Shown one piece after another: positions 14,242 through 48,220 of a DNA stretch of 54,121 nt (the first letter of the stretch is position 1; each line of letters starts with the position of its first letter). This stretch comes from Gemmatimonadales bacterium (GTDB lineage Bacteria; Gemmatimonadota; Gemmatimonadetes; Gemmatimonadales; GWC2-71-9), in NCBI GenBank assembly GCA_036379675.1, contig DASVGF010000051.1, forward strand, positions 1 through 54,121, in the 5' to 3' direction. The notes beneath the pieces were generated by a model that was not told the origin of the DNA, ran no database searches, and saw nothing but the letters and a program-made list of their open reading frames with translations. The position numbers were made by a program, and so were the translations under genes.

Positions 14242-14331
14242 CTAGACCGGCCGGAGCTCACGGGCGCTCTACTTTGAGGAAGCACTGACGCGCGATCGTC
14301 AGGCCGACGCGACGATACTGGCGGAGGGGTA

Positions 14332-14832
14332 ATGAGGCGGTGGCAACGGTGGGCTGCCCTCACTCCACTCGCCCTGGGACTCGGCCCCTGGGCGGCTGCG
14401 GCCGCCCAGACGACGTTCTATGCCGGGGCTGGCTTTGGCTACACGGCAGTGGTGGACGGCGGCCTGGGCAATCGACAGGGCAGCCGAAACTGGTTCGGCA
14501 TGGTAGGTCTGGAGAGCGGGGGCCCTGTAGGCGGCCGCCTGGAAGGTGCGGAAACCATGAGCCGGCTGTGGCTGAGTGCCGATCTGACCTACCGGCTGAG
14601 TGCCCGTGATCGACAAGTGCGTCCCTACGGGGTGATCGGTGGCGGGTTCGTGCTGGACCTGTCGGAATTGGATCCACTGCTCACCCTCGGGGCGGGACTT
14701 CGGGTACAGGCCGGGCGCCTCATCTTTCTGTTCACCGAGGCGCGGCTCCAGTGGGTGCCCAGCATGCCAGCCACATCGGGGGAAGCTAGGCTCGTTCTGC
14801 CGCTCATCGCTGGACTCGGGATCGGCTACTGA
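14332..14832 (+). CDS. Small outer-membrane beta-barrel-like exported protein
   Basis: Signal peptide ...LGPWAAAAAQ, alternating beta-strand pattern, C-terminal ...AGLGIGY aromatic end. Confidence 0.6.
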   Translation: MRRWQRWAALTPLALGLGPWAAAAAQTTFYAGAGFGYTAVVDGGLGNRQGSRNWFGMVGLESGGPVGGRLEGAETMSRLWLSADLTYRLSARDRQVRPYGVIGGGFVLDLSELDPLLTLGAGLRVQAGRLIFLFTEARLQWVPSMPATSGEARLVLPLIAGLGIGY

Positions 14833-14838
14833 GTCGCC

Positions 14839-14887
14839 GCCTCACAAGCGCATGCGGCCGCCGGGCTTCATCGATAAGGAATGTCGG
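14839..14887 (+). repeat. attC remnant (left half plus loop start)
   Basis: GCCTCACAAGCGCATGCGGCCGCCGGGCTTCATCGATAAGGAATGTCGG, then similarity ends. Confidence 0.65.
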
Positions 14888-14917
14888 TTGAAACCTGCAT
14901 CGGACCCCGAGCATTCA

Positions 14918-15496
14918 ATGCAAACCGAGCACCTGACTCGCGAGGACCTGGTTTCGGCACTATCGGCTGCGGAAGTGGACGTTGCAGACTTCTTCGCCTC
15001 GCTCACTCCAGACGAGCTTGTTTTGCGGGTGGAGAACGCCTGGACCGCTGCCGAGCAGCTCGCCCATCTCAACGCTGCCGTGAGTGCGGTGGCGAGGGGT
15101 TTTGCAGTTCCGCGGATTATCCTGCGTCTTCGATTCGGTCGGGCCCGGAGCTCCGGACGTAGCTACACGGCACTACGGGACGATTATCGTGCCCGGCTGG
15201 CGGCCGGTGGTCGGGCTTCCGGGCCGTTCGTTCCCAATCGCCATGATCTGCCGACGTCACAGGGTGAAGCGCGTCGCCGTGACTTGCTCGCACGTTGGCA
15301 CAGGGTAAACAATCGGCTTCAGAAGGCGCTCGAGTCGTGGAACGAGCAGGCTCTGAATACGATCCGGCTGCCTCATCCCTTGCTGGGGAAGATCACCGCT
15401 CGGGAGATGATCTACTTCACGTTGTACCACGCCAAGCACCACGTGACTGCGACCAAGAAACGGCTGCCACGCTTCACCGGGTCAAGTGCCGGCTGA
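14918..15496 (+). CDS. DinB family protein
   Basis: ATG 14918. WTAAEQLAHL near the N-terminus and FTLYHAKHH near the C-terminus fit the DinB/YfiT-type four-helix metal-binding His pattern. TGA stop 15494-15496 lies inside GGCTGAC. Confidence 0.6.
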   Translation: MQTEHLTREDLVSALSAAEVDVADFFASLTPDELVLRVENAWTAAEQLAHLNAAVSAVARGFAVPRIILRLRFGRARSSGRSYTALRDDYRARLAAGGRASGPFVPNRHDLPTSQGEARRRDLLARWHRVNNRLQKALESWNEQALNTIRLPHPLLGKITAREMIYFTLYHAKHHVTATKKRLPRFTGSSAG

Positions 15497-15520
15497 CAAG
15501 CGCATTCAGCCGATAAGCAG
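15491..15520 (+). repeat. attC remnant (left half only)
   Basis: GGCTGACAAGCGCATTCAGCCGATAAGCAG compared with GCCTAACAAGCGCATGCAGCCGAC. Confidence 0.55.
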
Positions 15521-15547
15521 CAAACCACCCTGTGCTGGGAGGCCAGC

Positions 15548-15916
15548 GTGAAACGACCACTGACAGGAATGATACTGGCGCTCACCAGCCTCCCGGCTTG
15601 CAGCGAGCGGGAGGCGACTCGCGATCCCGGGTCTTCTCACGCTGCCGAGGCGGTACCCCGATTGGATTCCGCCAAGGTGCCGGCCGATCTGCGGGATCTC
15701 GTGCCGTACGCGCAGCGCTGGGGGATCGGAGATGATGTCGCCCGCTCAGCGCGGGTTCGGAAGGCCACCGACGCCGAACGATCCGAACTGCGCGCGGCCT
15801 TTGGCCCGCGGCAGGCGCGGATCACAGCCTGGCTCGATTCCTTTGGACCGGGAGCAATGCCGGAGGAGGCGGCGGCCTTCATGTACACCCAGCTTGCCAT
15901 CGAGGAAATGCCCTAG
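15548..15916 (+). CDS. Lipoprotein of unknown function
   Basis: MKRPLTGMILALTSLPAC has a lipobox-like LPAC. GTG start. Confidence 0.55.
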   Translation: MKRPLTGMILALTSLPACSEREATRDPGSSHAAEAVPRLDSAKVPADLRDLVPYAQRWGIGDDVARSARVRKATDAERSELRAAFGPRQARITAWLDSFGPGAMPEEAAAFMYTQLAIEEMP

Positions 15917-15945
15917 GACGCGGCAGGCAGCGGGGATGTCACCCG

Positions 15946-16018
15946 GCCGCTAGCCGCCGGCCCGCTGGTACTCCATTTTCCAGAATTCCCCCGCCAGAGC
16001 GTGAAGCGGCCGTTAGCC
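15946..16018 (+). repeat. Degenerate attC (right half well conserved)
   Basis: GCGTGAAGCGGCCGTTAGCC (R' GTTAGCC 16012-16018) parallels GCTGATGCGCGGTCCGTTAGGC. The left part GCCGCTAGCCGCCGG is only weakly similar to GCCTAGCC-type R''. Confidence 0.45.
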
Positions 16019-16091
16019 AGTACAACGTGCGGAGGATGACAAACACGGAACGGCGCACATTCTCGAAGGTGCCATATTCCGGGATGTTGAC

Positions 16092-16589
16092 GTGTCTCCT
16101 AAAGTACGGTCGTTCTGGCCACTCCTGCTGAGTGTGCTCCTGACCGATTGCGCGACCAAGCAGTTCGCCATCGAGCGCCTCGCGCCGGTTGCCACACCGC
16201 ACGAGGTGCTGGGAGACTGGGTCAGACTCGTCCTTGTTTATAACCGCGGGGCGGCCATGGGTCTTTCCCTGGGATCCTGGGCTCGACCGCTCCTGGCGGT
16301 GGTCACGGTGGCGATGCTGGGGCTCTTGTGGGTGTGGTATCGGCGGACCAGGCGGCGGGATTGGATGACGGCGGCCGCACTGGGGCTGATCGCGGGCGGG
16401 GCGCTGGGGAATCTGCTGGACCGCCTGCGGTGGGACCGGGGGGTGGTGGACTTCATCGACATTGGCTGGGGATCGGTTCGCTTCTGGACTTTCAATGTGG
16501 CCGATGTCGGCATCACCTGCGGTGCCCTGTGGCTGGCGTGGCGACTGAGCCGCCGTCAGGCCGAACCACCTGAGCCGGCTGCGGTCTGA
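16092..16589 (+). CDS. lspA: Lipoprotein signal peptidase (signal peptidase II)
   Basis: LLTDCATKQ (conserved D/K), NRGAAMG, GGALGNLLDR, VVDFID and FNVADV motifs align with E. coli LspA. GTG start. TGA stop lies inside GTCTGAC. Confidence 0.9.
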   Translation: MSPKVRSFWPLLLSVLLTDCATKQFAIERLAPVATPHEVLGDWVRLVLVYNRGAAMGLSLGSWARPLLAVVTVAMLGLLWVWYRRTRRRDWMTAAALGLIAGGALGNLLDRLRWDRGVVDFIDIGWGSVRFWTFNVADVGITCGALWLAWRLSRRQAEPPEPAAV

Positions 16590-16608
16590 CCAGCGAGGCC
16601 GGTTGGGC
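16584..16608 (+). repeat. Possible minimal attC relic after lspA (GTCTGAC-N11-GTTGGGC)
   Basis: An RYYYRAC-like heptamer contains the lspA stop and is followed 11 nt later by GTTGGGC (the same R' variant as 5648). Too short to fold as a functional attC. Confidence 0.25.
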
Positions 16609-16633
16609 CGAGCCCGAAATCGGTGGAGGATTC

Positions 16634-16978
16634 ATGCGGTCATGGAACGCCTGGTTTCTCGCAGGTCTCGCGCTCTTTCTGGGAAGCTGCACCTACTGGG
16701 AGCCCTATGCTCCACTCGCATCTACGGGTCCATCACCGGACTTGCCGTCTTCACTCCAGGTCGTATCCGACACCGGCTCACCCCTGCTGCTCACCGAGCC
16801 ATTTGTCAGGGCCGACACCCTCTTCGGCCGCACCGGTCGGGACACCGTGCGGCTTCCGCTCCACCAGCTGCGTGAAGTACAGCGTCAACGGGTACATGGA
16901 TTGCGGACCCTCGGCTTGATTGCAGGCGTGGGCGCGGTATGGATCACTGTAGGGCTGTACGGTGGCGGGCTGGAATAG
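16634..16978 (+). CDS. Lipoprotein with C-terminal TM helix; paralog of cassette ORF 10048-10419
   Basis: LALFLGSC lipobox. CTYWEPY, PFVRADTLFG, DTVRLP and RTLGL motifs are shared with the cassette protein. Confidence 0.7.
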   Translation: MRSWNAWFLAGLALFLGSCTYWEPYAPLASTGPSPDLPSSLQVVSDTGSPLLLTEPFVRADTLFGRTGRDTVRLPLHQLREVQRQRVHGLRTLGLIAGVGAVWITVGLYGGGLE

Positions 16979-17003
16979 GTCACGGCGCATGGAACTGGGA
17001 GGG
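16977..17003 (+). repeat. Possible attC left-half relic
   Basis: AGGTCAC-G-GCGCATG-GAACTGG-GAGG compared with GCCTCAC-AA-GCGCATG-CAGCTGG-CGG. It starts at the stop codon of the preceding ORF. Confidence 0.3.
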
Positions 17004-17007
17004 GATC

Positions 17008-17391
17008 ATGGAGACTGTGGACCGTGCGTTCGGGTGGCTGCTGATCGTCGGAGGGGTCCTGCATGCGATCGGCTCATGGACGGGTTACAGGACTACGCCC
17101 GAGACGCTCCTCTGGGCCCTCGCGGGCTCGCTGGCGGCCCTGCTCGTGGCCGCGGTCAACCTGCTGCGGGCGGGCCGGCCGGGCGACCTTCCGCTGGCGT
17201 GGGTGAGCCTTGGCGGATCCGTCGCGTGGATGGCGGTGGCCCTCGGCTTCGGGATCGTGATCGGGAACCTCCTCGACCCTCGCGCGCTGATCCATATGCT
17301 CAACGCGCTGGTTCTGGCGGGGATGAGCCTGCGTACGGTCGGGCGTGCGAAAAAGGGGGCGCAGTATCCCCGAGGGCGCGGCGGAACCTGA
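17008..17391 (+). CDS. Integral membrane protein of unknown function
   Basis: GGGAGGGG RBS then ATG 17008. Four predicted hydrophobic helices. Confidence 0.55.
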   Translation: METVDRAFGWLLIVGGVLHAIGSWTGYRTTPETLLWALAGSLAALLVAAVNLLRAGRPGDLPLAWVSLGGSVAWMAVALGFGIVIGNLLDPRALIHMLNALVLAGMSLRTVGRAKKGAQYPRGRGGT

Positions 17392-17542
17392 ATTTTCTGC
17401 GGGCGCGGTAGCGTGCCAGGTGAGTGGTCTGCCAATACTGAGTCGCCCTCCTTCCACTTAACCGGGCCCTAGCCGTCCCCGCATAGCCTCTTCAGATTTC
17501 GAGCAGCCTGATCCTGTGTTTGGCAGCGTGGAGCCGCGTTGG

Positions 17543-17899
17543 ATGACCGTGAGCGCAAGCTTCAGAGCCTTCGTCCTCGAACAACTCGCCCGTGAGGTTC
17601 AGGGCATCCGCGGGCGGAACATGTTCGGCGGGGTGGGGATCTACAGTGGGGAGCTTTTCTTTGCGCTGATTGCCGATGACTCCCTGTACTTCAAGGTAGA
17701 CGAATCGAATCGGCCGGAGTTCGAGGCCAGAGGCATGGGTCCCTTTCAACCGTACGGCGAAGACGGCGAGGTGATGCAATACTACCGTGTGCCCGAGGAT
17801 CTGCTCGATGACCCCGAAGTGTTGGGCCAATGGGCTGAGAAAGCGATCAGTGTGGCACGCCGTGCCCGGCGCGGGCCTCCTCGCCGGCGCGGCGCCTGA
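17543..17899 (+). CDS. TfoX N-terminal domain protein
   Basis: MFGGVGIYSGELFFALIADDSLYFKVD....EF...G..PF......G.....YY.VP matches the TfoX_N pattern. Confidence 0.7.
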   Translation: MTVSASFRAFVLEQLAREVQGIRGRNMFGGVGIYSGELFFALIADDSLYFKVDESNRPEFEARGMGPFQPYGEDGEVMQYYRVPEDLLDDPEVLGQWAEKAISVARRARRGPPRRRGA

Positions 17900-17935
17900 G
17901 TGTCAGGAAACCGGCAGAACAGGAAGGAAGCCTCG

Positions 17936-18589
17936 ATGGTTCCAGCACGCGAAGCCCTCGCCCGGCTGCGGGAAGGGAACCTCCGGTTCGCTTCGAACGT
18001 CGGTGGCTCCCATCCATACCCGGCTCACGTGCGGCGGGCCGAGCTGGCCTCCGGCCAGCAGCCGTTCGCCATCATACTCGGCTGCTCGGACTCGCGGGTG
18101 CCGGCCGAGATCGTGTTCGATCAGGGATTGGGCGACCTTTTCGTCATTCGCGTTGCCGGCAACATCGTGGCCCCCTCCCAGGTCGGCAGCGTCGAGTTTG
18201 CCGCCGCCCGGTTCAATACCCGGCTGGTGGTAGTGCTGGGACACTCGCAGTGCGGCGCGGTCCTGGCCACGCTGGAAGAGCTTCAAAGGCCGACGGAGAA
18301 CCAGTCTCGCAACCTGCGGGCAATCGTCGATCGGGTGCGCCCCTCCGTCGAGGGGCTGCTGGCAACCGGACTACGGCACGATCTGGACGCCCTCATGCCG
18401 CACGCGGTTCGGGCTAACATCCGCGCATCCGTCAACCACCTGCGCCACGGCTCCGAGGTGCTGGAGCAGCTGATTCAGGACGAAGGCCTGCGCGTCGTCG
18501 GCGCCGAGTACTCACTGGAAACCGGCGTGGTGGACTTCTTCGACGGCGCTCCCGCAATTGAAGGCGTGTCGGTTCTCGAGGAGGCGTAG
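17936..18589 (+). CDS. Beta-class carbonic anhydrase
   Basis: CSDSRVPAEIVFDQGLGDLFVIRVAGN and VVLGHSQCGAV zinc-ligand motifs. AGGAAGG RBS upstream of ATG 17936. Confidence 0.88.
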   Translation: MVPAREALARLREGNLRFASNVGGSHPYPAHVRRAELASGQQPFAIILGCSDSRVPAEIVFDQGLGDLFVIRVAGNIVAPSQVGSVEFAAARFNTRLVVVLGHSQCGAVLATLEELQRPTENQSRNLRAIVDRVRPSVEGLLATGLRHDLDALMPHAVRANIRASVNHLRHGSEVLEQLIQDEGLRVVGAEYSLETGVVDFFDGAPAIEGVSVLEEA

Positions 18590-18602
18590 CGGCTCGGCTC
18601 GG

Positions 18603-19208
18603 ATGAGACACCCCGAGCTCCGGACCGAGCTGCTCGAGCTTGCCGCGCACGACCTGCGAGTACGATCGGAGATCGCGTCAGCCGGCCAGCTGAGCCAGGC
18701 CGGGTATCATCCGCAAATGCAGGAGGTACACCGCCGCAACGCCGAGCGGCTCCGTGCCATCCTTGCCCGCCACGGGTGGCCCGACGAGGACATGGTCGGT
18801 CCCGATGGGGCCGAGGCCGCGTGGCTCATCGTCCAACATGCCATCGGCGATCCCGCGCTCCAGCGCCAGTCGCTGGAGCGCGTGCAGCGCGCAGCGAGCC
18901 TGGGCGCGGTGCCGGGCTGGCAGGCCGCGTTTCTGGAAGACCGGATCAGGTTCTTCGAGGGCCGACCCCAGCTTTACGGGACCCAATTCGACTGGGACGA
19001 GTCGGGCCAGCTGAGCCCGGCACCCGACATCGAAGATCCCGCTGGAGTGGACGCCCGCCGGCGGTCCGTTGGGCTGGAGCCGCTGGCAGAGGCGACACGC
19101 CGGCACCGGGAGCGGGCGGCGATCGACAACGAGCGCCCCCCCGCAGATCCTGCCGCCCGGCGGCGCGAGCTGGAAGAGTGGGCCCGCCGGGTGGGCTGGC
19201 GCCGCTAG
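18603..19208 (+). CDS. Conserved hypothetical protein (DUF6624-like)
   Basis: L.E....D...R ... N...L..I....GWP....VG..GA.AAWL.VQHA ... AFLEDR......Q.YGTQ pattern. Assignment by memory only. Confidence 0.45.
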   Translation: MRHPELRTELLELAAHDLRVRSEIASAGQLSQAGYHPQMQEVHRRNAERLRAILARHGWPDEDMVGPDGAEAAWLIVQHAIGDPALQRQSLERVQRAASLGAVPGWQAAFLEDRIRFFEGRPQLYGTQFDWDESGQLSPAPDIEDPAGVDARRRSVGLEPLAEATRRHRERAAIDNERPPADPAARRRELEEWARRVGWRR

Positions 19209-21206: not shown

Positions 21207-23210
21207 TCAGCTCCGGGCCAGTCTCGGCGCCGCGGCCAGCTTTCTTACCGCATTGGCCAGCAGACGAGTCTTTGCCGGATCCTTGGCGCCCGCGGCTTCG
21301 GTCTCCAGACGCGTCGCCAGGGCGGCCAACGCCTTGCTCCGCTCGGCGTCGGAGGCCTTTTCGGCAGCGGCCAGGGCGGCCCGGAACTCGGCGATTCGAC
21401 CCGCGTCCAATCCCTTCGACCGCTCCAGCTGATCCAGATAGGCTCGGGGGACGGAGAACGTGGCCGGCCAGACCAGCTTCGGCTGTCCCTGGACGTTCAG
21501 ATACTCCAGCTTCACCGAGCGGGCCGCATCGATCTCGTTCTGGCTGACCAGCCCGCTTGGCACCAGCTCCAGAATGTCCAGCCCGCGGGAGATCTCGGAG
21601 CTGACGATGACGCCGTTGTACCAGTACGCCGACCACGAGCCGCCGCCCTCCATCCGGGTCGAGTCCACCGGCCCCCGGTCGAAGTAGGCGATCTCTTTCG
21701 GCTGCTTGGGATCAGTCCAGTCGAACACCGAGATGCCGCCCTGGTACCAGGCCTGCACCATCACGTCGCGGCCGGGGATCGGGATCAGCGACCCGTTATG
21801 GGCCACGCAGTTCTCCTGCGGCGTCTGCGGGGCCGGCAGCTTGTAATAGCTCTGGAACTGCATCTTCCGGTCGCGGGTGAGGGTGAAGATGGCATCCGCT
21901 CCCCACTCCCGCTTGTCCGTGCTGCGGCACTTGGGCTGGCTGCCGCCGCCCCACTCATCGGAAAAGAGGATCTTGGTGCCGTCGTTGTTGAACGTGGCCG
22001 AGTGCCAGTAGGAGAAGTTCGAGTCGGCCACGGCGCCGATGCGGACCGGCTGCACCGGGTTGCGGATGTCGAGCAGGAGGCCATAGCCGCCGCAGGCGCC
22101 GCCGGCCAGCCCGATGGCCGGGTAAACCGTGATGTCATGGCACTGGGTCGGCCCGGCATTGGAATCGGGCATTTCGGCCATGTACGTCTTCATTTCGGCC
22201 TCGATGATTCCCGGCAGCGCCCGCCGCAGGGTGGAGCTGTCCGTTGAAGTCGGGGCGCCGGTTCCGTTGCGGGCCTTTACGATGCTGTCCAGCAACATCG
22301 CGGTCCACTGCGGATTGATTAACTGTTCCTCCCCATGGATCATCGCGGTGAATCCACCGTGAGCCTTGGCCTCAGCCAATGCCTTTTCCGCCGCAACCTT
22401 GTCCTCCGGTGCGTCGCCGTGCTCCGGCGGCGCCACCAGACCCTCGAAAATCCTGGGCGAGCTGACGATCGCCGCCTGCTCCGGATGGGCCAGCGGCACC
22501 TTGATGACCTCGATGCGGAACAGCGCCGAGTTGGGATCCTTCGGCGCACGCACGCAGCCGGGCATCTCGTTGGGCGACCGCACCTGCGACGATCCCGAGA
22601 TGTAGACGTAGACGTTCTCCCGGTCCTTCGGATCCACCAGCACCGTGTGGGTATGCGAGCCCCGGCAGGTCTGCACGTTGCCCACGTTCCGGGGCCGGGT
22701 GATGTCGGTGATGTCGAAGATGCGGATGCCCCGCAGCCGGTCCTTGCTCACCGTGTCCTGCACGCCCTCCACCCCGCAATCCAGCCGGGCTGCGAGATTC
22801 TCGCCCGACACGAAGAGCAGATTCTTGTAGACCGAAACGTCGCTCTGGGAGGCGGGACAGACGTGGGCCGCTTTCAGGCTGGGCCGGCGCGGGTTGGAGA
22901 TGTCCCACACCTGGTAACCGTTGTAGTTGCCCTGGATTGCGTAGTTCCCGGTAAAGGCCAGGTCGGAGTTGGTGACGTCCAGGAACTGGTCCGGCGGCGG
23001 CGTCTTGGAGAGCACGCGCAGATTCCACACCGCTTCCGCGGCATCCATCTTCCCGGCCCGGAGACCCACCCGGGGATCCGGATTTGGAGCTGCCGTAGAC
23101 CGGTGAGCGCTCGGGGCCGGAGTACCGTCCGAGCCCGACGAGGTGGAGCGGGCACAGGCCGCGCCGGCGAGGAGGGCGAGTATCAACGGCAACTTCAGTA
23201 CGGATACCAT
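21207..23210 (-). CDS. LVIVD-repeat beta-propeller protein (COG5276-like), exported
   Basis: Signal peptide MVSVLKLPLILALLAGAAC. Repeated YKNLLFVSGE, HTHTVL, CHDITVY, HSATFNNDGT and AWYQGGISVFDW blades. Confidence 0.7.
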   Translation of the reverse strand: MVSVLKLPLILALLAGAACARSTSSGSDGTPAPSAHRSTAAPNPDPRVGLRAGKMDAAEAVWNLRVLSKTPPPDQFLDVTNSDLAFTGNYAIQGNYNGYQVWDISNPRRPSLKAAHVCPASQSDVSVYKNLLFVSGENLAARLDCGVEGVQDTVSKDRLRGIRIFDITDITRPRNVGNVQTCRGSHTHTVLVDPKDRENVYVYISGSSQVRSPNEMPGCVRAPKDPNSALFRIEVIKVPLAHPEQAAIVSSPRIFEGLVAPPEHGDAPEDKVAAEKALAEAKAHGGFTAMIHGEEQLINPQWTAMLLDSIVKARNGTGAPTSTDSSTLRRALPGIIEAEMKTYMAEMPDSNAGPTQCHDITVYPAIGLAGGACGGYGLLLDIRNPVQPVRIGAVADSNFSYWHSATFNNDGTKILFSDEWGGGSQPKCRSTDKREWGADAIFTLTRDRKMQFQSYYKLPAPQTPQENCVAHNGSLIPIPGRDVMVQAWYQGGISVFDWTDPKQPKEIAYFDRGPVDSTRMEGGGSWSAYWYNGVIVSSEISRGLDILELVPSGLVSQNEIDAARSVKLEYLNVQGQPKLVWPATFSVPRAYLDQLERSKGLDAGRIAEFRAALAAAEKASDAERSKALAALATRLETEAAGAKDPAKTRLLANAVRKLAAAPRLARS

Positions 23211-23222
23211 GTTCGATCCCGG

Positions 23223-26941: not shown

Positions 26942-27570
26942 AGGCCGGCTGTCCCCGGCCGGGTAGTGGATGGCACTCCCCAGTACCGCCGCAGCGAGCT
27001 GATGATCACCGGCAGCCCCCGGAAGACGCAGAAGGCCACCGCCGTCCACGCGAGGACCCGCACAATCGCCATAATGCTCGGAACGGCGGCGGCAACGTCG
27101 GGAAAGCCGGCCAGCGCCTGAGCCAGGGCCAGGCCACAGAACGTCAACACTTTCGTGACGGCGTAACCGGTCCGCATCCAGGTCGAGCCCACCAGAAATC
27201 TTCCGAGAGCCGTTCGGTGTTGCTCGAAGGGCGCCGTCCCCTGGCCTACCCCGATGCTCCGGAGCGCGTCGGTCAGCGTCGTACGCGTGATGATGATGAT
27301 GGGGATGGCCACCGGAATCATCTCCAGGTCGGCAAAGCACACCCAGAGCACCAGCTCGTAGGTCCGGTCGGCCGCGATGTCCAGCACGCTGCCGAACAGG
27401 CTGGTCTGGCCCGTCCGGCGGGCCACCATCCCGTCCACCGTGTCCAGCATGAGCCCCACAAAGAGCAGCCCCACGCCGGCGAGCCGGGCCGGGGGAGAGC
27501 CCTGGTACAGGATCAGCACCGTGACCAGCAACAGGGGGAAGCGCGAGATGGTAATCCAGTTGGCTAGCAT
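26938..27570 (-). CDS. CDP-alcohol phosphatidyltransferase family protein
   Basis: DTVDGMVARRTGQTSLFGSVLDIAADR equals the D(x2)DG(x2)AR(x8)G(x3)D(x3)D motif. ATG at 27570. Confidence 0.85.
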   Translation of the reverse strand: MLANWITISRFPLLLVTVLILYQGSPPARLAGVGLLFVGLMLDTVDGMVARRTGQTSLFGSVLDIAADRTYELVLWVCFADLEMIPVAIPIIIITRTTLTDALRSIGVGQGTAPFEQHRTALGRFLVGSTWMRTGYAVTKVLTFCGLALAQALAGFPDVAAAVPSIMAIVRVLAWTAVAFCVFRGLPVIISSLRRYWGVPSTTRPGTAGL

Positions 27571-31388: not shown

Positions 31389-31619
31389 ATGGAGTTCGAG
31401 GCACGTCTCAAGCCGGAGCACCGGCGTGATCATCCCGACCTGAGCGGCTACAAGTGGTACCCGGTAGTCCCGCTCTGGCCCGGCCTCACGGAGCGGACCC
31501 GGAACATGTCGGGCCAGCGGCTGGCCCGGCTGAAGACTTCGCAGGATTACATGATGATTCGGGCCGACCACCTGGAGTTCAGGGTCAAGGGATCCGGGGA
31601 GAACGAGGCCACTGGCTAG
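31389..31619 (+). CDS. Hypothetical small protein (76 aa)
   Basis: ATG ORF. No family recognised. Overlaps the probable start region of the next gene. Confidence 0.35.
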   Translation: MEFEARLKPEHRRDHPDLSGYKWYPVVPLWPGLTERTRNMSGQRLARLKTSQDYMMIRADHLEFRVKGSGENEATG

Positions 31620-32670
31620 ATTCCCGGCTCTCGGCCTTGCCGTGGTGCTGGCAGCATGTAGCGAGTCGAAGCCCCCGGCTCCCCCGGTGGAGCTGGCCCG
31701 GGGGGGCGACACCGTCTCCACCAACTTCGCGGCAGTTACCGACGCGGTGTGGCTCGGGGGCAGCCGCTGGGCGGTGATTGCCCCCAGCAACGAAGCCGTA
31801 GGGATCGTGGACTTCTCCGATCACCGCTACCGCCCCCTGGGCGCCAACCGGTCGAAGGAGCTCCGCAACCCGGCAACGGTCTTCCGCGCCGGTGACACAC
31901 TGTACGTGGGCGACTGGGGGCTGCGCCGTATCAGCCTCTGGACACCTGCTGGGAGGCTGGTGGGCTCCGCGCCCACCGCCGATGCGGTGAGGGGCACGCT
32001 GCCGCGGGCTCGCGACAACGCAGGCCGGTTCTACCTGGACCTCTACCCCAGGCCCGGGCCCGACGGGAGCGGCAACCGCGACTCCGCCGCCATCGTCCGC
32101 ACCGATCCCCGATTCACCCGGGCCGACACCGTGGCCCGGCTTGCCCCGCTCGACATTGCCGAGGTGACGGGAGACGCGGGACGCCGCTTCGAACGCCGCG
32201 TGTTCGGGGGGGCCGACGAGTGGGGTGTCCTGCCGGATGGCTCCATCTGGATCGCGCGGGTCTACGGGAACCGGGTGGACTGGCGGTCCCCCGACGGCAC
32301 GTGGACCCGGGGGCAGTCTCTCCCCGACCGCGTGCTCGAGGTTACTCGCTATGACCGGGAGCTTTTCATCCGGGGCTTTCCGCCGGAGCTGCGAGGCACC
32401 GCTCAGGACCTGCCGTTCGCTCCCCTGAAGCCGCCGTTCGAATCCGGATTCACCAGCGCGACCGGAGAGGTCTGGTTGGAGAAGAGCCGCGCGCCGGCGG
32501 ACTCTGCCCGCGCGTACCACGTGGTGGACCGCAATGGCCGCCTGATTCGCGAGGTCCGTTTACCCGGGCAGGGCCGGATTCTCGGGGTGGGCGCCGACGC
32601 CGCGCTGGTTGCCGAATCAACCAACGACGGGACCCGCCTCGTCCAGGTCCCCTTGCCTTCGATCAACTGA
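31612..32670 (+). CDS. Lipoprotein, tandem paralog 1 (beta-propeller-like); start codon uncertain (CTG 31612 or GTG 31642)
   Basis: Frame encodes ARFPALGLAVVLAAC (lipobox LAAC), but the only canonical start (GTG 31642) lies inside it. Shares W.AR..GNRVDWR.PDG.WT with 32682-33794. Confidence 0.6.
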   Translation: MARFPALGLAVVLAACSESKPPAPPVELARGGDTVSTNFAAVTDAVWLGGSRWAVIAPSNEAVGIVDFSDHRYRPLGANRSKELRNPATVFRAGDTLYVGDWGLRRISLWTPAGRLVGSAPTADAVRGTLPRARDNAGRFYLDLYPRPGPDGSGNRDSAAIVRTDPRFTRADTVARLAPLDIAEVTGDAGRRFERRVFGGADEWGVLPDGSIWIARVYGNRVDWRSPDGTWTRGQSLPDRVLEVTRYDRELFIRGFPPELRGTAQDLPFAPLKPPFESGFTSATGEVWLEKSRAPADSARAYHVVDRNGRLIREVRLPGQGRILGVGADAALVAESTNDGTRLVQVPLPSIN

Positions 32671-32681
32671 GGAATGCCAGA

Positions 32682-33794
32682 ATGAAGCTCGTCTTCTCCT
32701 TGAGCACCGTCACCCTCGCTGCGGCGGTGGGATGCACCAGAGCTGAAAGCCAGAGCGCCGTCACGCTCGATGCCACGCTGGCGGCCTCATATGGCGCCGT
32801 GAGCAATGTGGTGGAGCTGAAAGACGGCCGGGTGGCGTTTGCCGATACGAGGGACAAGCTGTTCCTGACCGGAGACCTCAAGAGCGGCAAGGTGGACACC
32901 CTCGGCAGCCGGGTTGACTCGCTCAAGCCGGGGGGGCCCGTAGGCCAATACAAGTTTCCCGGCTGGGTAGCGCATCTGGGAGGCGATACGGTCGCCCTGG
33001 TGGATTTCAGCGTGCTCCGCACGACCCTGTGGACCGAAAAGGGCAAGCCGCTGGGCGTCCTCCCCATCCTCGGCGTGGCGGGTGAAACCCCGGTGTTGCT
33101 GTACGATTCCGTGGGCCACGGGTACAAGATCGACTATCAGGCGATGTTCGGGCGCGGCGCCCCGGGCCGGGTGCTGCAGACGGATAGCATTCCCGTGCTC
33201 CGCATCCGCCTCAAGGGCGGCAAGGTGGACACCGTCGCAATGCTGGCCGGCCCGGAGCTGGGCGACGCGACCTTCGGCGAGCAGGTGCAGCAGGCGGCCA
33301 AGGTCTTTGCGCCCAACGACCACTTCGGGGTCCTGGGCGACGGCACCGCGTGGGTGGCGCGCGGGCATCAGAACAGGGTGGACTGGCGGGCGCCGGATGG
33401 GAGCTGGACCCAGGGAAAGGCGCGGGAGTACCCCAGGGTGCCGGTAACCCAGGCCGACCGGGACCGGGTCCTGGCCCAGGTGCGGGAGCAGGGGAAGCAG
33501 TTCGGCATGCCGCAGGAGCTGAAAATCGTCTACCCCTTCGCCGAGACCAGGCCTCCGTTCGACTTTGCATTGGGCCGGCCCAACGGCGAAGTCTGGCTCC
33601 AGCGGCCGCGGAGCCAGGAGGACGCGCCCCTGGTGTATGATGTGGTGGATCGCCGGGGCGAGTGGCGGCGCGCGGTTACCTTCCCGAAGGGGGCCACGCT
33701 CGCCGGGTTCGGGGCCAACGATGCGGTCTATGCGGTGATCAAGGGCGGGGACGGCAAGCGTACGGTGGGGCGGTATAAGGTCACCTCTCACTAG
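32682..33794 (+). CDS. Lipoprotein, tandem paralog 2 (beta-propeller-like)
   Basis: MKLVFSLSTVTLAAAVGC lipobox. WVARGHQNRVDWRAPDGSWTQG, EVWLQRPRS and YDVVDRRG motifs parallel the upstream gene. Confidence 0.7.
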   Translation: MKLVFSLSTVTLAAAVGCTRAESQSAVTLDATLAASYGAVSNVVELKDGRVAFADTRDKLFLTGDLKSGKVDTLGSRVDSLKPGGPVGQYKFPGWVAHLGGDTVALVDFSVLRTTLWTEKGKPLGVLPILGVAGETPVLLYDSVGHGYKIDYQAMFGRGAPGRVLQTDSIPVLRIRLKGGKVDTVAMLAGPELGDATFGEQVQQAAKVFAPNDHFGVLGDGTAWVARGHQNRVDWRAPDGSWTQGKAREYPRVPVTQADRDRVLAQVREQGKQFGMPQELKIVYPFAETRPPFDFALGRPNGEVWLQRPRSQEDAPLVYDVVDRRGEWRRAVTFPKGATLAGFGANDAVYAVIKGGDGKRTVGRYKVTSH

Positions 33795-40824: not shown

Positions 40825-41748
40825 ATGTCGCTCGATCGTACCGAGCCACTCACCGCTCCGGGCAGCACCCAGGAGGCTATCGAGCGGCTGCGGCTGTACT
40901 TTGCGGCGACCACCACCCGCCAGGGCATCCTCGCGCGCCAGGCGCTGGGGGAGCCGGCGCCCGGAGACGAGCTGCTGGGCCAGCGGCTGGCAGACGATAT
41001 GCGGGCCGAAACCCGGATGGATGGGAGCATCGCAGGAGCCGTGGTCCCTACCATCTGGCGCGCTCACGAGCTGCTCGACCTCGGATGCGACGGGGGTCAG
41101 GCCGGGACGGGGCGGGTAATGGGCTGGATTCTTCAGCTGCAGGGCAAGCCAGGAGCATTCAGCGAAGGCTGCAGCGCCCCGCGCCACGCCCATCGTACCT
41201 GCCAGCATTTCATCTCGGGGTTCTTTTCGCCCGCGCCGCCAGGACAGCGGCTCACCCCGGTCATGCTGCCCAACGGGAAGGTATTCCGGGCAGAGCCGGC
41301 CGCCCGGTTCGCCATCAGCTGCATGGCTCTGCGCGCGGCGCTCCGGGCGCGAATGGAAGACCGGCCCGAGGTCCGGCAGCACCTCCTGGGACTGCTGCAG
41401 CTCCAGGAACAGTGGGAGGACTGGGACGGGTACTTTTCCGCGGATGCGATAATCGCCGGCATCCACGCGCTGGCGTTCGCGCCGGAGCCCCATCGCGCCG
41501 GGCTGCCCCGGCTGGCGTCAATTGTGGCGGCCAATCAGGCGGCCGACGGTACCTGGCCCCACGCCGACCTGTTCCACACCCTGGAGGCCCTGCGCGCGCT
41601 GAGCTCCGCCGAGGCCCACACCGCGGTTCGCCGGGCCGTGCCCGCCCTGTTGGCGCGGCAACGGATCGACGGTAGCTTCGGCGCAACCGCCCAGCAGGAG
41701 CGGGCCCTGATAGCGCTGCGCGCGCTGCTCTGGTCGGAAAGGGACTAG
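40825..41748 (+). CDS. Prenyltransferase/squalene-cyclase-like alpha/alpha-toroid repeat protein
   Basis: Repeated Q..DGS/T motifs (RMDGSIAG, QAADGTWPH, QRIDGSFG). Its stop TAG abuts the selD ATG (TAGATG). Confidence 0.45.
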   Translation: MSLDRTEPLTAPGSTQEAIERLRLYFAATTTRQGILARQALGEPAPGDELLGQRLADDMRAETRMDGSIAGAVVPTIWRAHELLDLGCDGGQAGTGRVMGWILQLQGKPGAFSEGCSAPRHAHRTCQHFISGFFSPAPPGQRLTPVMLPNGKVFRAEPAARFAISCMALRAALRARMEDRPEVRQHLLGLLQLQEQWEDWDGYFSADAIIAGIHALAFAPEPHRAGLPRLASIVAANQAADGTWPHADLFHTLEALRALSSAEAHTAVRRAVPALLARQRIDGSFGATAQQERALIALRALLWSERD

Positions 41749-42822
41749 ATGAGCGGCAAGCCGATCGACCAGAAACCGAGGATCAGATTGACCGCGCTGT
41801 CGCACGGCGCCGGCTGAGCCTGCAAGCTCGGCTCGGCCGACCTGGCGCAGGTCCTGCGCCTTCTGCCCAGCGTAAAGGACCCCCGGGTCCTCATCGACGC
41901 CGCCAGCAAGGACGACGCCGCCGTCTTTGTCTTGTCTCCCGAGCGCGCGCTGGTGGCCACGGTCGACTTCTTCACCCCTATCGTCGACAACCCTGCCTCG
42001 TGGGGCGCCATCGCGGTCGCCAACGCCCTGAGCGACATCTATGCGATGGGGGCCACGCCGCTCTTCGGCCTCAACCTGGTGGGATGGCCCCGCGAGCAGC
42101 TACCCATGGAGATGCTGGGCGAGGTGCTCCGCGGCGCCGCCGAGGTGGCGGAGCGGGCCCGGTGTCTCGTTCTCGGGGGCCACACCATCGATGCGGTCGA
42201 GCCCACCTTCGGCATGGCCATCATCGGCGACGTGCATCCCGACGGGATGCTGACCAACGCCGGTGCGTGCGCCGGTGATGTGCTGGTGTTGACCAAACCC
42301 ATCGGGACGGGAATTCTGGCCACCGCGCTCAAGCGGGACGCACTGATCGAGGCCGGCATGGCCGAGGCGGTGCGATCCATGACCACGCTGAACGACGGCG
42401 CTGCCCGGGCGGCGTTGCGGGTGGGAGTCAGCGCGGCCACCGATGTCACCGGCTTCGGACTGATCGGCCACCTGACCAATATGCTCGAGGCCAGCAAGGT
42501 GGCGGCGGAGATCGCGTTCGAGGCCATTCCCATCCTGCCCCACGCCCGGAACCTCGCCTCGCGCGGCATCGTCCCGGGCGGCACCGAGCGCAACCTCCAG
42601 GCGGCCACCCAGGTGGAATGGTCTCCCGAGATCGGACAGGCCGACCGCTACCTCTGCGTGGACGCCCAGACCTCCGGCGGCCTGCTGCTGGCGGTGCCGG
42701 CGGAGAACGAGGCGGCCCTGGTCAGCGCGCTGAAGGAAGAGCGCACCCCGGCGGCCGCGGTGATCGGTAGGGTTGTCGCCGGCAAGGCGGGACAGGTCAG
42801 AGTCACCCGCAAGCTCGGCTAA
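41749..42822 (+). CDS. selD: Selenide, water dikinase (selenophosphate synthetase) with in-frame UGA = selenocysteine at codon 23
   Basis: From ATG 41749: MSGKPIDQKPRIRLTALSHGAG-TGA(41815-41817)-ACKLGSADLAQVL..., colinear with E. coli [25 protein letters not shown] (Cys17). The rest (track ORF 41932-42822) has DDAAV, VDFFTPIVD, SDIYAMG, GGHTID, TDVTGFGL and GGTERN motifs. Confidence 0.85.
41828..41859 (+). promoter_or_regulatory. Candidate SECIS region downstream of the selD UGA
   Basis: Alternative GC hairpins 11-45 nt after UGA: UCGGC-UCG-GCCGA (41828-41840), GACCUG-GCG-CAGGUC (41839-41853) and GCGCAG-GUC-CUGCGC (41845-41859). No proper SECIS model was run. Confidence 0.35.
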
Positions 42823-42829: not shown

Positions 42830-43078
42830 GTGTTGTCTGAGGAGCTCCTCCTAGTGCCGCCAATTCGCTGGACAGCCCAAAGGATGGACCAGCTCGAGAG
42901 CGCCGCCCGGCGCGGCCTCCGGGTGGCGCTCGACCGTCGTGGCACCGAGTACATCGTGGTGGCGTTGCGGGTAACCTCGGTGGATCAGCACGATGCGCTG
43001 GTTGCCCGGCTCCCCATGACCGGAGAAGAGCTCACCTTCCGGCTCGACGACATCTCGAGCTTTCAGGTGATCGAGTGA
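42830..43078 (+). CDS. Hypothetical small protein (82 aa), translationally coupled to rnhA
   Basis: GTG 42830 after the selD stop. Its stop overlaps the rnhA start (GTGA at 43075-43078). Confidence 0.45.
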   Translation: MLSEELLLVPPIRWTAQRMDQLESAARRGLRVALDRRGTEYIVVALRVTSVDQHDALVARLPMTGEELTFRLDDISSFQVIE

Positions 43079-43689
43079 GCGTGGTGGCCGTCGTACACCT
43101 CGATGAGAGCTGCCTCGGCAACGGACGGGATGGGGAGAACGCAGGCGGCTATGCCGGCCTCATCGAGGTACGGACGCGTTCGCAGATCCAGCGGCGGGAC
43201 TTCTACGGGCACTCGCCGGCCACCACCAACAATCGGATGGCCCTCACCGGTGCCACCCGCGCGCTGGAGCTGCTCGGCGGTAAAGGGGCCCGGCTGCACG
43301 CGCTGATGGTGTCGGACTCGGAATACCTGGTCAAAGGAATGCGTATGTGGGTGACTGGCTGGCAGGCGCGGGGCTGGAAGCGGGCCGGCGGCCCCATCGA
43401 GAACCTCCAGCTCTGGCAGGACCTGGTCGCGGCAGCCGGCAAGCATGACTTGCAGTGGGCCTGGGTCCGCGGGCATGCGGGCCACCCGAAAAACGAGTAC
43501 GTGGATATGCTCGCGGTGGCGGCGGCACGGGAGCAGACGAGCACACCGGGAGCGGTGGAATCAGGCTTCCTGCAATGGCTCGCTGGGAAACTCGCAAAGG
43601 GCAAATACCTGGAGTACGACCCCGACAGGGAATTCGACCAGCTGGCGCAAAGAGTCGCTGCCGGCGAGTCATTTCCGCTGGCGATATGA
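43075..43689 (+). CDS. rnhA: Ribonuclease HI with ~55-aa C-terminal extension
   Basis: DESCLGN, TNNRMAL, SDSEYLV, GW..RGWK and WAWVRGHAGHPKNEYVD align with E. coli RNase HI catalytic D/E/D/D motifs. Confidence 0.88.
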   Translation: MSVVAVVHLDESCLGNGRDGENAGGYAGLIEVRTRSQIQRRDFYGHSPATTNNRMALTGATRALELLGGKGARLHALMVSDSEYLVKGMRMWVTGWQARGWKRAGGPIENLQLWQDLVAAAGKHDLQWAWVRGHAGHPKNEYVDMLAVAAAREQTSTPGAVESGFLQWLAGKLAKGKYLEYDPDREFDQLAQRVAAGESFPLAI

Positions 43690-43690
43690 C

Positions 43691-43735
43691 TCACTCCAGC
43701 TCACCTCTCACCTCTCACCTCTCACCTCTCACCCC
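43691..43735. repeat. Tandem heptamer repeat (TCACCTC)x4.9
   Basis: TCACTCC-AGC-TCACCTC TCACCTC TCACCTC TCACCTC TCACCC between convergent rnhA and the 43722-44582 ORF, whose stop lies in the repeat. Confidence 0.9.
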
Positions 43736-44582
43736 GGATGGCGTAGCTCGCCATCACCCTGCCGGTCACCGCATCGCCCGGCGCGCCGTAGATCTGCCCG
43801 CTCAGGGCCAGTCGGCCTCCCGGGCTCCAGGTAGCGCCTCCGAACAGCGCCGCCTGAGTCAGGTCTACCTCGACCTTTCGATTGTCGGTCTCGCCGAATT
43901 GATCGGTGAAGTTCACCTGGAATCGCGGGTGGAGCAGGTTGAGCCCTCCCCCCACGAATGGTCGTACCCGTCCCTCAGCCAACGGCCAGGATAGCGTGCC
44001 TTCCAAGCCGAAGATGTTGGGGTGATAGCGGTCGTCCGACCGGGTTCCCTGGTAACACACGCTCGCCGGGTCCTGCAGCGCCTCGTCGTTACAGGTGATC
44101 GGAGCGCGAATACGGCCAATGGTGCCGTGCGCTCGAAGGGTCATCAGCGCCCGCCGGCCCAGCGGAAACGGCCGCTGGACGGAGAGGCCTACCAGGTTGG
44201 CCTTCACATCGTTCAATGGAATGGGCGGCACCCAGCTCGCTTCGAGCATCAACCCCGCCGGAAGCTCGACCGATACTCGGGGGCGGGGAAAGGCAAACAG
44301 CAGATCGGTGTTCTCGGGACCTTTGCCAGGCCGGCAGGTCGTGGGGGTGCGGGTCTCCTCGTCGATGTTGGGCAGGTAGGTGACCTCGAGCGCAAGCCGG
44401 ACCCCGCCCGGCATCGGGATCAGCGGCGCCCCGGCTACCGAGTAGGCCAGCGGCACGGACAGCTCGGCAAAGAGCTGCGCTTCGTTCGAGGTCTTGGAGG
44501 GGAAGCAGTCGGGCAGCTGGCCCCAGGCAATAGCCGGGAGCAGCAGGAGGCCCGCGCCCGGGCCGGCGGTCAAGCCACGCAT
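43722..44582 (-). CDS. Exported/outer-membrane beta-barrel-like protein of unknown function
   Basis: Signal peptide MRGLTAGPGAGLLLLPAIAWGQ. Beta-rich alternating pattern. Confidence 0.55.
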   Translation of the reverse strand: MRGLTAGPGAGLLLLPAIAWGQLPDCFPSKTSNEAQLFAELSVPLAYSVAGAPLIPMPGGVRLALEVTYLPNIDEETRTPTTCRPGKGPENTDLLFAFPRPRVSVELPAGLMLEASWVPPIPLNDVKANLVGLSVQRPFPLGRRALMTLRAHGTIGRIRAPITCNDEALQDPASVCYQGTRSDDRYHPNIFGLEGTLSWPLAEGRVRPFVGGGLNLLHPRFQVNFTDQFGETDNRKVEVDLTQAALFGGATWSPGGRLALSGQIYGAPGDAVTGRVMASYAIRGER

Positions 44583-46515: not shown

Positions 46516-47382
46516 ATGGATCTCGCAGTCGGGGCGCTGGCGTTCGCGGTGATCTACTCGTTCCTCAGCATGCGGGTCCTGCGTCAGTACGAGCGGGGGG
46601 TCGCCTTTTTCCTGGGCCGCTACTGGGGCACCAAGGGCCCCGGGCTCATCTTCCTGCCGGCCGGCTTCGCCAGTCAGAAGCGGGTCTCGCTCCGAATCTC
46701 AGCCGTCGATATCCCGCCCCAGGACGTGATCACCCGTGACAACGTATCGGTCAAGGTCAACGCGGTGCTGTACATGCGGGTGAGCGAGCCGGCCAAGGCG
46801 GTGATCGAGATCGAGGACTATATGTATGCCACGAGCCAGCTGGCCCAGACCACACTGCGCTCCGTGCTGGGCGAGGTGGAGCTGGACGAGCTGCTGTCCG
46901 ATCGGGAGAAGATCAACGCCGTGCTCAAGAAGATCATCGACGAGCGCACCGAGGCCTGGGGTATCGAGGTCTCCGCGGTGGAGGTGAAGGACGTGGACCT
47001 GCCCGATCAGATGAAGCGGGCCATGGCGCGGCAGGCCGAGGCCGAGCGCGAGCGCCGGGCCAAGGTGATCAACGCTCAGGGCGAGCTCCAGGCCTCCGAG
47101 ACCCTGGCGCAGGCGGCCCGGCAGCTGGCCACCGAGCCTACCGCATTGCAGCTCCGCTACCTCCAGACGGTCACCGAGATCGCGGCCGAGAACAACTCGA
47201 CCACCATCTTTCCCATTCCGATGGAGCTCTTCCGTCCTTTCCTGGCCCCGCCCGCGGCGCCCGGCCCCAGGGCCGTAGGATCGGCTGAGCCGTCCGGACC
47301 CGCCCTGCCCGCGGCCGACATCTCATCGCTGATGTCCCAGCTCCGCATCCAGGCCGCCGCCAAAGACCCTGCGCAGGAATAG
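46516..47382 (+). CDS. SPFH/band-7 (stomatin-like) protein
   Basis: N-terminal [36 protein letters not shown], coiled-coil [13 protein letters not shown]. Confidence 0.88.
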
Positions 47383-47383
47383 C

Positions 47384-48220
47384 ATGGCCGAGGGCAACGG
47401 ACCCGCGCGGATCGATCGAGCCGCGCTTGAACGGATCATTCAGCGGGCGGCCGAGCTGCAGACCGCTGAGCACGAGATCGGCGACAGCATGACCTCGGAC
47501 GAGCTGATGGCGCTGGGCCGGGAGGTCGGGATTCCGGGCCGCTATCTCCAGCAGGCCATGCTCGAGGAGCGCACCCGGCTGGGCACCGTGGGGGCCACGG
47601 GCCTGGTCCAGCGGGTGGCCGGTCCGGGCCAAATTACGGTTCAGCGCGTGGTGGCGGGCGAGCAGGACTCGATCGAGCAGAACCTGCTTCGCTGGATCGA
47701 GCACAATGAGCTGTTCTGCGTGCAGCGGCAGAAGCCAGGACGCATCACCTGGGAGCCGATCGGCGGCATCCAGGCCGCCATCCGCCGTTCCACCGCCGCG
47801 CTGGGCTCGGGCAAACGGCCGTTCATGCTTTCGCGCGCAGCCACCGTGTCGGCCACGGTGGTTCCGCTCGAGCCCGGCTACGCCCACGTGACGCTGACCG
47901 CCGATACCAAAAACCTCCGGAACGAGTACGTCGCGGCGGGATCACTCCTTGCCGGGGCCGGCGTGGGCGGCACCGCCATCCTCGTTGCCCTGGGCGCTCT
48001 GCTGCCGCTGGCGCTCCTCCCGTTGCCGGTGGCCTTCGGCTTCGGGTATGGCATCCTCAGGCGCTATGGCCCGGTCGTGGCCCGCATTCATCTGGGCCTC
48101 GAGCGGGCGCTCGACTTCCTGGAGCAAGGCAATCCGAAGGCGCACCACCAACTCCCCGACCGCTCCGCCGGGATCCTCGGCCTTCTGGCGGACGAAGTGC
48201 GGAAGGCTCTGAAATCGTGA
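47384..48220 (+). CDS. Hypothetical membrane protein (soluble N-domain plus 2 C-terminal TM helices)
   Basis: ATG 2 nt after the SPFH stop. Hydrophobic hairpin AGSLLAGAGVGGTAILVALGALLPLALLPLPVAFGFGYGIL. Confidence 0.55.
   Translation: MAEGNGPARIDRAALERIIQRAAELQTAEHEIGDSMTSDELMALGREVGIPGRYLQQAMLEERTRLGTVGATGLVQRVAGPGQITVQRVVAGEQDSIEQNLLRWIEHNELFCVQRQKPGRITWEPIGGIQAAIRRSTAALGSGKRPFMLSRAATVSATVVPLEPGYAHVTLTADTKNLRNEYVAAGSLLAGAGVGGTAILVALGALLPLALLPLPVAFGFGYGILRRYGPVVARIHLGLERALDFLEQGNPKAHHQLPDRSAGILGLLADEVRKALKS

Follow-up and report, generated by a model that had tools for sequence, protein, structure and literature searches.

Introduction

Selenocysteine-containing (Sec-type) selenophosphate synthetases (SelD) include those of Haemophilus influenzae and Aquifex aeolicus, as well as those of many Deltaproteobacteria and Clostridia. 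Among bacterial selenoproteins, none are more widespread than FdhA and SelD (PMC1794560), and SelD, with its UxxK motif, constitutes the second largest prokaryotic selenoprotein family (PMC13188914). Sec-type genes account for 19% of prokaryotic SelD genes, with Sec always occupying the same position, and RNAz recovers their bacterial SECIS (bSECIS) elements (PMC4561486). Conversions of SelD from Sec to Cys, which leave remnant SECIS-like structures, have also been described (PMC1794560).

The bSECIS model of Zhang and Gladyshev (2005), as far as it is summarised in PMC13188914, comprises an upper stem of 4–16 bp, a loop of 3–9 nt and a minimum free energy of −7.5 kcal/mol or lower. In the same summary, a G is found within the first two loop positions, typically in the arrangement N1-G-[G/U]-N-N2, and 16–37 nt separate the UGA from the loop (PMC13188914).

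Here, we analyse a selD gene within a 54,121-nt stretch of DNA, hereafter the window, from an uncultured Gemmatimonadales-like organism. The original prediction for this locus held that selD is itself a selenoprotein gene, with an in-frame UGA in place of the codon for the catalytic Cys. Our results indicate that selD (41749-42822) very likely encodes a Sec-containing SelD.

Results

A full-length selD reading frame interrupted by a single UGA

The selD coding sequence extends over positions 41749..42822 of the forward strand and comprises 357 codons and a TAA stop, which the translation places at 42820-42822; the UGA at codon 23 is predicted to be read as selenocysteine. In the sequence, the ATG (41749-41751) directly follows the TAG (41746-41748) of the upstream gene, and translation of 41749-42822 yields MSGKPIDQKPRIRLTALSHGAG*ACKLGSADLAQVL..., where the sole internal stop is the TGA of codon 23 (41815..41817, forward strand). 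This predicted Sec codon, U23, corresponds to Cys17 of E. coli SelD and forms a UxxK motif with K26. The mechanical ORF list offers 41932..42822 alone for selD, a 296-aa product with a TTG start; this internal TTG (41932..41934, forward strand) appears to be a false start, giving a truncated SelD without the catalytic loop. The 61 codons between 41749 and 41932 are free of stops apart from the TGA at 41815-41817. The original prediction had described each of these elements, namely, the ATG abutting the upstream TAG, the single in-frame TGA, the TTG-initiated fragment as the sole listed selD ORF and the otherwise stop-free 61 codons, and all of them are present as described. A purine-rich, Shine-Dalgarno-like stretch, GGAAAGGGA, can be read from the sequence at 41736..41744 of the forward strand, 4 nt before the selD ATG. 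The position of GGAAAGGGA within the 3' end of the upstream gene suggests that selD may be translationally coupled to it.

Profile searches were run on the 357-aa product with Cys substituted at the TGA. The product scores 366.4 bits against TIGR00476 (cutoff 125; residues 13-320, covering profile positions 1-310 of 311) and 358.2 bits against NF002098 (cutoff 299; residues 10-352), and the alignments to both of these SelD HMMs run across the TGA. Among solved structures, E. coli SelD (PDB 3U0O; E 4.7e-73) matches best, and Aquifex aeolicus SelD (2YYE/2ZOD) comes next. The phmmer alignment to 3U0O pairs residue 23, encoded by the TGA, with Cys17, C25 with Cys19 and K26 with Lys20, in agreement with the colinearity initially proposed, and the glycine-rich loop reads HGAG-U23-A-C25-K26 in the window and HGAG-C17-G-C19-K20 in E. 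coli. By these profile and structure matches, the predicted product of 41749-42822 is a full-length selenophosphate synthetase SelD.

The codon is TGA in half of the homologues, and the sequence before it is constrained

Scanning a single genome for each GTDB species provided a set of 80 homologous loci. Those nearest to the window come from Gemmatimonadota MAGs, L001 being 79% identical. The codon equivalent to Cys17 is TGA in 39 of the 79 other loci and TGC or TGT in 40, and one further locus lacks the 5' end; the comparisons below therefore set 40 TGA-type sequences, the window included, against 40 TGC/TGT-type (Cys-type) sequences. TGA-type selD was found in Gemmatimonadota, Marinimicrobia, Actinomycetota, Chloroflexota, Planctomycetota, Bacillota and others.

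Over the 13 codons preceding the TGA, the window and L001 differ by 9 synonymous and 0 non-synonymous changes, and in comparisons with other Gemmatimonadota relatives, synonymous changes at these codons are at least as numerous as non-synonymous ones. The amino acids encoded by all 22 upstream codons are conserved, the nucleotide differences including synonymous ones. GC3 is 0.91 upstream of the TGA and 0.92 downstream, and an ATG 21-22 codons before the TGA is also found in L001, L002, L022, L083 and L084. Given the synonymous excess, the GC3 of 0.91 and the conserved ATG position, the 5' stretch behaves as translated coding sequence, and the 13 codons before the TGA are, by their pattern of substitution, under purifying selection. 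TGA terminates 13 of the 32 other genes of the window and is thus not globally reassigned. A contig of the Logan assembly (L081) is 100% identical to the window over 3,211 nt, TGA included, which is not fully independent support, since the contig may derive from the same reads.

A hairpin downstream of the UGA conforms to the bSECIS model

Folding of the 60 nt from the UGA produces a 7-bp hairpin at 41844-41860. This predicted bacterial SECIS core (41844..41860, forward strand) consists of the stem strands GGCGCAG (41844-41850) and CUGCGCC (41854-41860) and the loop GUC (41851-41853), and is coded by the codons for L-A-Q-V-L-R. A 26-nt spacer separates the minihelix from the UGA, and the UGA-to-hairpin spacing as scored in the bSECIS model is 33 nt. 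The isolated hairpin has a folding energy of −12.5 kcal/mol, a stability equalled by 0 of 200 shuffles. In all the published bSECIS features, that is, stem length (7 bp), loop (3 nt, G-U-C, closed by G-C), spacing (33 nt) and energy (−12.5 kcal/mol), the hairpin agrees with the model.

The structure distinguishes the two types of selD. In the same codon register, all 7 pairs can form in 22 of the 40 TGA-type genes vs none of the 40 Cys-type genes, and at least 6 pairs in 32 of 40 vs 1 of 40, with 8 of the 40 TGA-type genes retaining fewer than 6. Three Cys-type genes (L004, L051 and L068) encode the identical peptide LAQVLR with synonymous codons that break the stem and leave 5 of 7 pairs; conservation of the peptide hence does not explain the structure. 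RNAalifold returned no consensus structure on the TGA-type alignment of 40 sequences and 78 columns, and explicit structures were therefore tested by pair counts. For the hairpin, 86% of the cells of the TGA-type alignment are paired, and double changes occur in 6 of the 7 pairs, with G-C, C-G and U-A pairs all represented at columns 45/55. The covariation score is 0.305, compared with 0.145 in shuffles, and 0 of 500 shuffles reach 0.305. When the 3' partner is slid along the TGA-type alignment, pairing amounts to 34-51%, and the same structure imposed on 32 Cys-type genes is paired in 52% of cells, which equals a 2-column slide and represents the background level. As judged from these alignments, evolution has maintained the hairpin in UGA-type selD specifically.

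An Infernal covariance model built from 39 TGA-type sequences, with the window left out, matches 41815-41874 with 75.2 bits (E 2.6e-27), and no other comparable match occurs in the 54 kb. The best Cys-type locus, L004, reaches 58.5 bits against this model, and the score accordingly reflects in part the similarity of the coding sequences. The SECIS element that the original prediction expected downstream of 41817 is thereby matched by a bSECIS-type hairpin at 41844-41860 and by the 75.2-bit Infernal hit. Rfam gave no match over the whole window at gathering thresholds; for 41700-41950 at E values up to 10, it gave no SECIS family and one chance match to the P27 sRNA on the minus strand. Since bacterial SECIS elements vary widely and are particular to their genes (PMC13188914), the blank Rfam result does not weaken the bSECIS assignment.

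Two further hairpins were considered. The strongest local fold in the window, a hairpin that contains the UGA (41811-41820/41830-41839), is nevertheless paired in 64% of cells, no better than shuffles, and was rejected as the SECIS. A hairpin in the spacer (columns 23-29 with 35-41) is paired in 76% of cells with weak covariation, a level that 35 of 500 shuffles reach; codon conservation of the K-L-G-x-x-E/D-L segment probably explains much of this pairing.

Close relatives differ in the Sec/Cys codon and in their gene calls

Synteny with the window extends over more than 20 kb in three long contigs, L082 (1.07 Mb), L083 and L084; assemblies GCA_050733075.1 and GCA_975305025.1 represent syntenic relatives. 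Both L083 and L084 carry the same TGA and an intact hairpin. L082 has TGC, with 6 of 7 hairpin pairs and one pair broken by a change from CGC to CAC, and L004 likewise has TGC, with 5 of 7 pairs. On this comparison of sequences, the Gemmatimonadota locus shows a known dynamic, in which Sec-to-Cys conversion leaves decaying 'fossil' SECIS hairpins (L004 and L082).

Recorded gene calls vary along with the contigs. The call on the Logan contig starts at the position equivalent to TTG 41932, that on L083 is shortened to 318 aa, and that on L084, a contig from an NCBI assembly, is 356 aa long and spans the TGA, so that the recorded call for L084 reads through it.

Sec-decoding machinery

No tRNA genes of any kind are present in the 54-kb window, and Pfam scans of its ORFs turned up neither SelA nor SelB among what are common housekeeping genes. 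The 3 kb on either side of the Gemmatimonadota selD loci yielded no tRNA-Sec, selA or selB, and a Pfam census of 117 flank ORFs of TGA-type loci disclosed no general linkage of selA or selB to selD. In two Bacillota loci (L057 and L058), tRNA-SeC and SelB adjoin a TGA-type selD with the same hairpin, and the SelB proteins score 346 and 326 bits, respectively, against TIGR00475 (cutoff 242). This linkage is a positive control for the TGA-type selD family. For the organism studied here, we infer that selA, selB and selC are located elsewhere in the genome. No other UGA-interrupted genes were detected in the window: among 24 in-frame TGA candidates assessed by GC3, the one at 41815 alone is credible, those at 20761 and 48218 being ordinary gene boundaries and the remaining ones lying in non-coding frames.

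Genes adjoining selD

The upstream gene (40825..41748, forward strand), whose TAG stop abuts the selD ATG, encodes a predicted alpha/alpha-toroid protein of 307 aa. The protein has no Pfam or NCBIfam family, and its 934 homologs are all annotated as hypothetical. Its AF2 model (pLDDT 81.6) gives terpene-cyclase-like and TED-like fold matches, and the protein carries an invariant Cys116/His121/Cys126/His128 loop. The gene is syntenic with selD in a Gemmatimonadales subclade, as seen in L001, L002, L004, L082, L083 and L084. Immediately downstream of selD, a small conserved gene with a GTG start (42854..43078, forward strand) encodes 74 aa; tblastn places it directly after selD in nine Gemmatimonadales loci, and it is also found in L082-L084. 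The 74-aa protein has no Pfam family, and its single-sequence AF2 model (pLDDT 57) was set aside. Next comes an RNase H gene (43075-43689; PF00075, 95.6 bits), the start of which overlaps the stop of the 74-aa gene. Overall, the gene order is a SnoaL-like gene, the 307-aa toroid protein, selD, the 74-aa protein and RNase H. The conserved neighbours, that is, the 307-aa gene upstream and the 74-aa gene downstream, are the sole unexplained elements of the selD locus.

What supplies SelD with selenium in vivo has yet to be settled in the literature (PMC13188914). Synteny and the modelled fold raise the idea, which we consider unlikely, that selD belongs to a conserved, translationally coupled string of genes in this Gemmatimonadales subclade and that the 307-aa protein might be a lineage-specific selenium-handling partner, for instance one that delivers selenide to SelD or sequesters it for the enzyme.

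Discussion

In the present study, we examined a selD gene with a UGA at the codon for the catalytic residue and a conserved recoding hairpin downstream of it, a combination from which the gene almost certainly encodes selenocysteine. Translation would begin at ATG 41749; SelB would be expected to bind the hairpin, and Sec would then be inserted at the UGA instead of termination. The residue would thereby take the site of the catalytic Cys17 of E. coli SelD, within the glycine-rich loop near the N-terminus (HGAG-U-AC-K). The central claim of the original prediction, that the UGA is read as selenocysteine, is supported by the SelD profile alignment across the UGA, the conserved 5' codons and the covarying, UGA-type-specific hairpin. 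Its further statement that Sec-containing SelD is already known in bacteria is textbook knowledge (PMC1794560, PMC4561486, PMC13188914).

Other readings of the UGA have to be weighed against Sec insertion. It is very unlikely that the codon is read through without Sec, by near-cognate Cys or Trp insertion stimulated by the hairpin, as has been proposed for insect SPS1-UGA. We know of no bacterial SelD for which such read-through has been reported, and the hairpin shows the N1-G-U-N-N2 pattern of bSECIS elements that bind SelB and lies at the canonical distance. The Sec machinery of this organism would lie outside the 54-kb window, which leaves room for this reading, and yet tRNA-Sec and SelB adjoin selD within the same selD group (L057 and L058). 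In eukaryotic SPS genes, a stem-loop after the UGA can favour read-through that does not depend on Sec (PMC4561486), whereas Sec-type SelD in the genomes surveyed was found within Sec-decoding organisms (PMC1794560).

Less probable still is that the UGA is a real stop, with either a truncated SelD initiated from an internal codon, e.g., TTG 41932, or a pseudogenised selD whose 5' end has decayed. Exactly this truncated product does emerge from mechanical ORF finding and from some gene callers, and Sec machinery was not found in the 54-kb window; however, initiation at 41932 would leave the protein without the glycine-rich loop in which Cys/Sec17 and Lys20 lie. Moreover, the codons before the UGA bear the signature of purifying selection (9 synonymous and 0 non-synonymous differences from L001, with a GC3 of 0.91), the start position is conserved, and both the UGA and the hairpin are conserved across phyla. 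The least probable reading is that the organism has an ordinary Cys-type SelD, whose TGC was turned into TGA by an error in sequencing or assembly. A single-base difference would suffice for such an error, and the close relatives L082 and L004 do have Cys-type orthologs, but the identical sequence is present in the Logan contig L081, and TGA occupies the same codon in the syntenic L083 and L084 and in 39 other loci. The hairpin points in the same direction: it is perfect in the window (7/7 pairs), as opposed to 6/7 in L082 and 5/7 in L004, and no Cys-type gene has 7/7.

With the UGA read as Sec, the main value of the locus lies in annotation, as ORF finding and several gene callers give products of 296-318 aa and thereby drop the catalytic loop. 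The correct selD product is predicted to be 357 aa long, residue 23 being Sec. On the strength of this gene, the Gemmatimonadales-like organism is also a probable Sec decoder, and other UGA-interrupted genes are consequently worth seeking in its genome. Our understanding of selenium biology is unchanged by this selD.

Comparison with the best-studied systems places the locus firmly among described ones. The likeness to E. coli SelD (3U0O) extends over approximately 340 aligned residues, with the same layout of the SHGAG-x-x-CK loop and with Lys20 and Cys19 kept; in E. coli, however, Cys (TGC/TGT) takes the catalytic place that Sec (TGA) is predicted to have in the window, and the gene can do without a SECIS. 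Like the consensus bSECIS, the window element is a stem-loop that follows the UGA closely within the coding sequence, and G and then U open its loop. The SECIS of E. coli fdhF is a 40-nt hairpin that starts at the UGA and has a bulged U and a larger loop, whereas the window element is a short perfect minihelix without a bulge, following a 26-nt spacer after the UGA. Insect SPS1-UGA genes with their HRE are similar in that a gene of the SPS/SelD family has the homologous codon replaced by an in-frame UGA and a stem-loop after it (PMC4561486). These genes are eukaryotic, reside in genomes without Sec machinery and have a three-stem element with the UGA within a stem; in the window selD, by contrast, conservation is seen for a hairpin of the SelB type and not for the stem that contains the UGA.

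The closest counterpart is the family of Sec-containing SelD proteins, with which the gene shares the Sec position, the UxxK motif and a bSECIS located just downstream of the UGA inside the coding sequence. A literature search on Gemmatimonadetes and Sec found no paper that singles out Gemmatimonadota, which is a gap in taxonomic coverage rather than a sign of a new kind of system. Structure and predicted mechanism are the same as in the described members, the lineage, an uncultured Gemmatimonadales-like one, being the sole difference. In every respect tested here by sequence analysis, the gene is a canonical Sec-type SelD, of a kind already known.

Apparent Sec-to-Cys conversion and variation of the SECIS hairpin

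Two close relatives, the syntenic contig L082 (10905-11972) and the homologous locus L004 (3001-4035), carry a Cys-type gene, with TGC in the position where the window has TGA. In both genes, the canonical hairpin, i.e., the predicted bacterial SECIS element, is recognizable but partly decayed, retaining 6 of 7 base pairs in L082, through a CGC to CAC change, and 5 of 7 in L004, through synonymous changes. These two selD genes look like recent Sec-to-Cys conversions, with fossil SECIS elements left behind. Departure from the canonical hairpin is also found among TGA-type genes: 8 of the 40 (L021, L024, L053, L059, L069, L077, L078, and L079) form at most 5 of the 7 pairs in the canonical register, about 60 nt after the TGA. 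Some of these eight contain other hairpins near by (e.g., CGGGGC-GCU-GCCCCG in L069 and L078), and these noncanonical hairpins suggest the existence of alternative SECIS forms.

Within the window, the second-best match of the selD-SECIS covariance model, at 27094-27127 on the minus strand, scored 15 bits and covered the hairpin part only. It falls within a gene for a CDP-alcohol phosphatidyltransferase, the frame of which has no in-frame stop; we therefore consider it a chance GC-rich hairpin.

Reading frames of selD orthologs

Public assemblies disagree on the gene call for the same selD ortholog. In L081, a contig identical to the window over 3,211 nt, and in the syntenic relative L083, the call is truncated and begins at an internal start (2886-3209 and 11023-11979, respectively), whereas in the relative L084 it is full length and spans the TGA (10909-11979). 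In a number of Cys-type loci (L009, L010, L012, L017, L023, L026, L028, L030-L034, L061, L067, and L072), the frame upstream of the SelD domain, counted 5' of the T-H-G-L-G-C-A-C-K motif, remains free of stops for at least 30 codons. SelD fusions are known, and the open upstream frame suggests that these loci encode putative N-terminal fusion proteins.

Other regions of the window

The first ~19 kb (1-19000) have a GC content of 62-65% vs 66-69% in the remainder and code for an amidohydrolase, an alpha/beta hydrolase, a HAD hydrolase, a DinB-like protein, and a carbonic anhydrase; a scan of ten ORFs from this stretch revealed no mobile-element genes. Long ORFs with high GC3 and no Pfam family occur at 21207-23222 (-), 31558-33794 (+), 43722-44582 (-), and 47333-48220 (+). 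Within the second of these stretches, ORFs 31558-32670 and 32355-33794 have counterparts in the syntenic relatives, where the genes encode 358 and 368 aa and likewise belong to no family.

Genes neighboring selD

Directly after selD lies a gene for a cysteine-free protein of 74 aa (42854-43078, +), with a GTG start preceded 10 nt upstream by GAGGAG; its TGA stop and the GTG start of the RNase H gene at 43075-43689 overlap. Nine Gemmatimonadales loci, as well as L082-L084, have the 74-aa gene in the same position. The protein yielded only sub-threshold matches, WYL and ROF-like (E 0.03-0.1), and its single-sequence AF2 model (pLDDT 57) was of too low quality for use.

In three Bacillota loci, a GT4 glycosyltransferase gene (L057, 1904-2938; L058, 1924-2922; L074, 1967-2971) is placed between tRNA-Sec/SelB and TGA-type selD. 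Its best match, NF038229, is below cutoff, and it resembles SenB, the selenosugar synthase for selenoneine (TIGR04348), likewise at a sub-threshold score (71-79 bits; cutoff 300).

Upstream, the TAG stop of a 307-aa gene (40825-41748, +) abuts the selD ATG, and the two genes are syntenic in L001, L002, L004, and L082-L084, with Sec- and Cys-type selD alike. The protein matched no Pfam or NCBIfam family. Of its 934 homologs, 120 were listed, all of them unnamed or "hypothetical," and where the source names an organism among them, it is always from Gemmatimonadales or Gemmatimonadota. Residues 110-138 form a disordered insertion bearing invariant C116, R120, H121, C126, and H128. The AF2 model is an all-helical alpha/alpha toroid (pLDDT 82, pTM 0.83), which bears a weak likeness (TM about 0.5-0.58) to class II terpene cyclases, thioester-containing domains, and transcobalamin.
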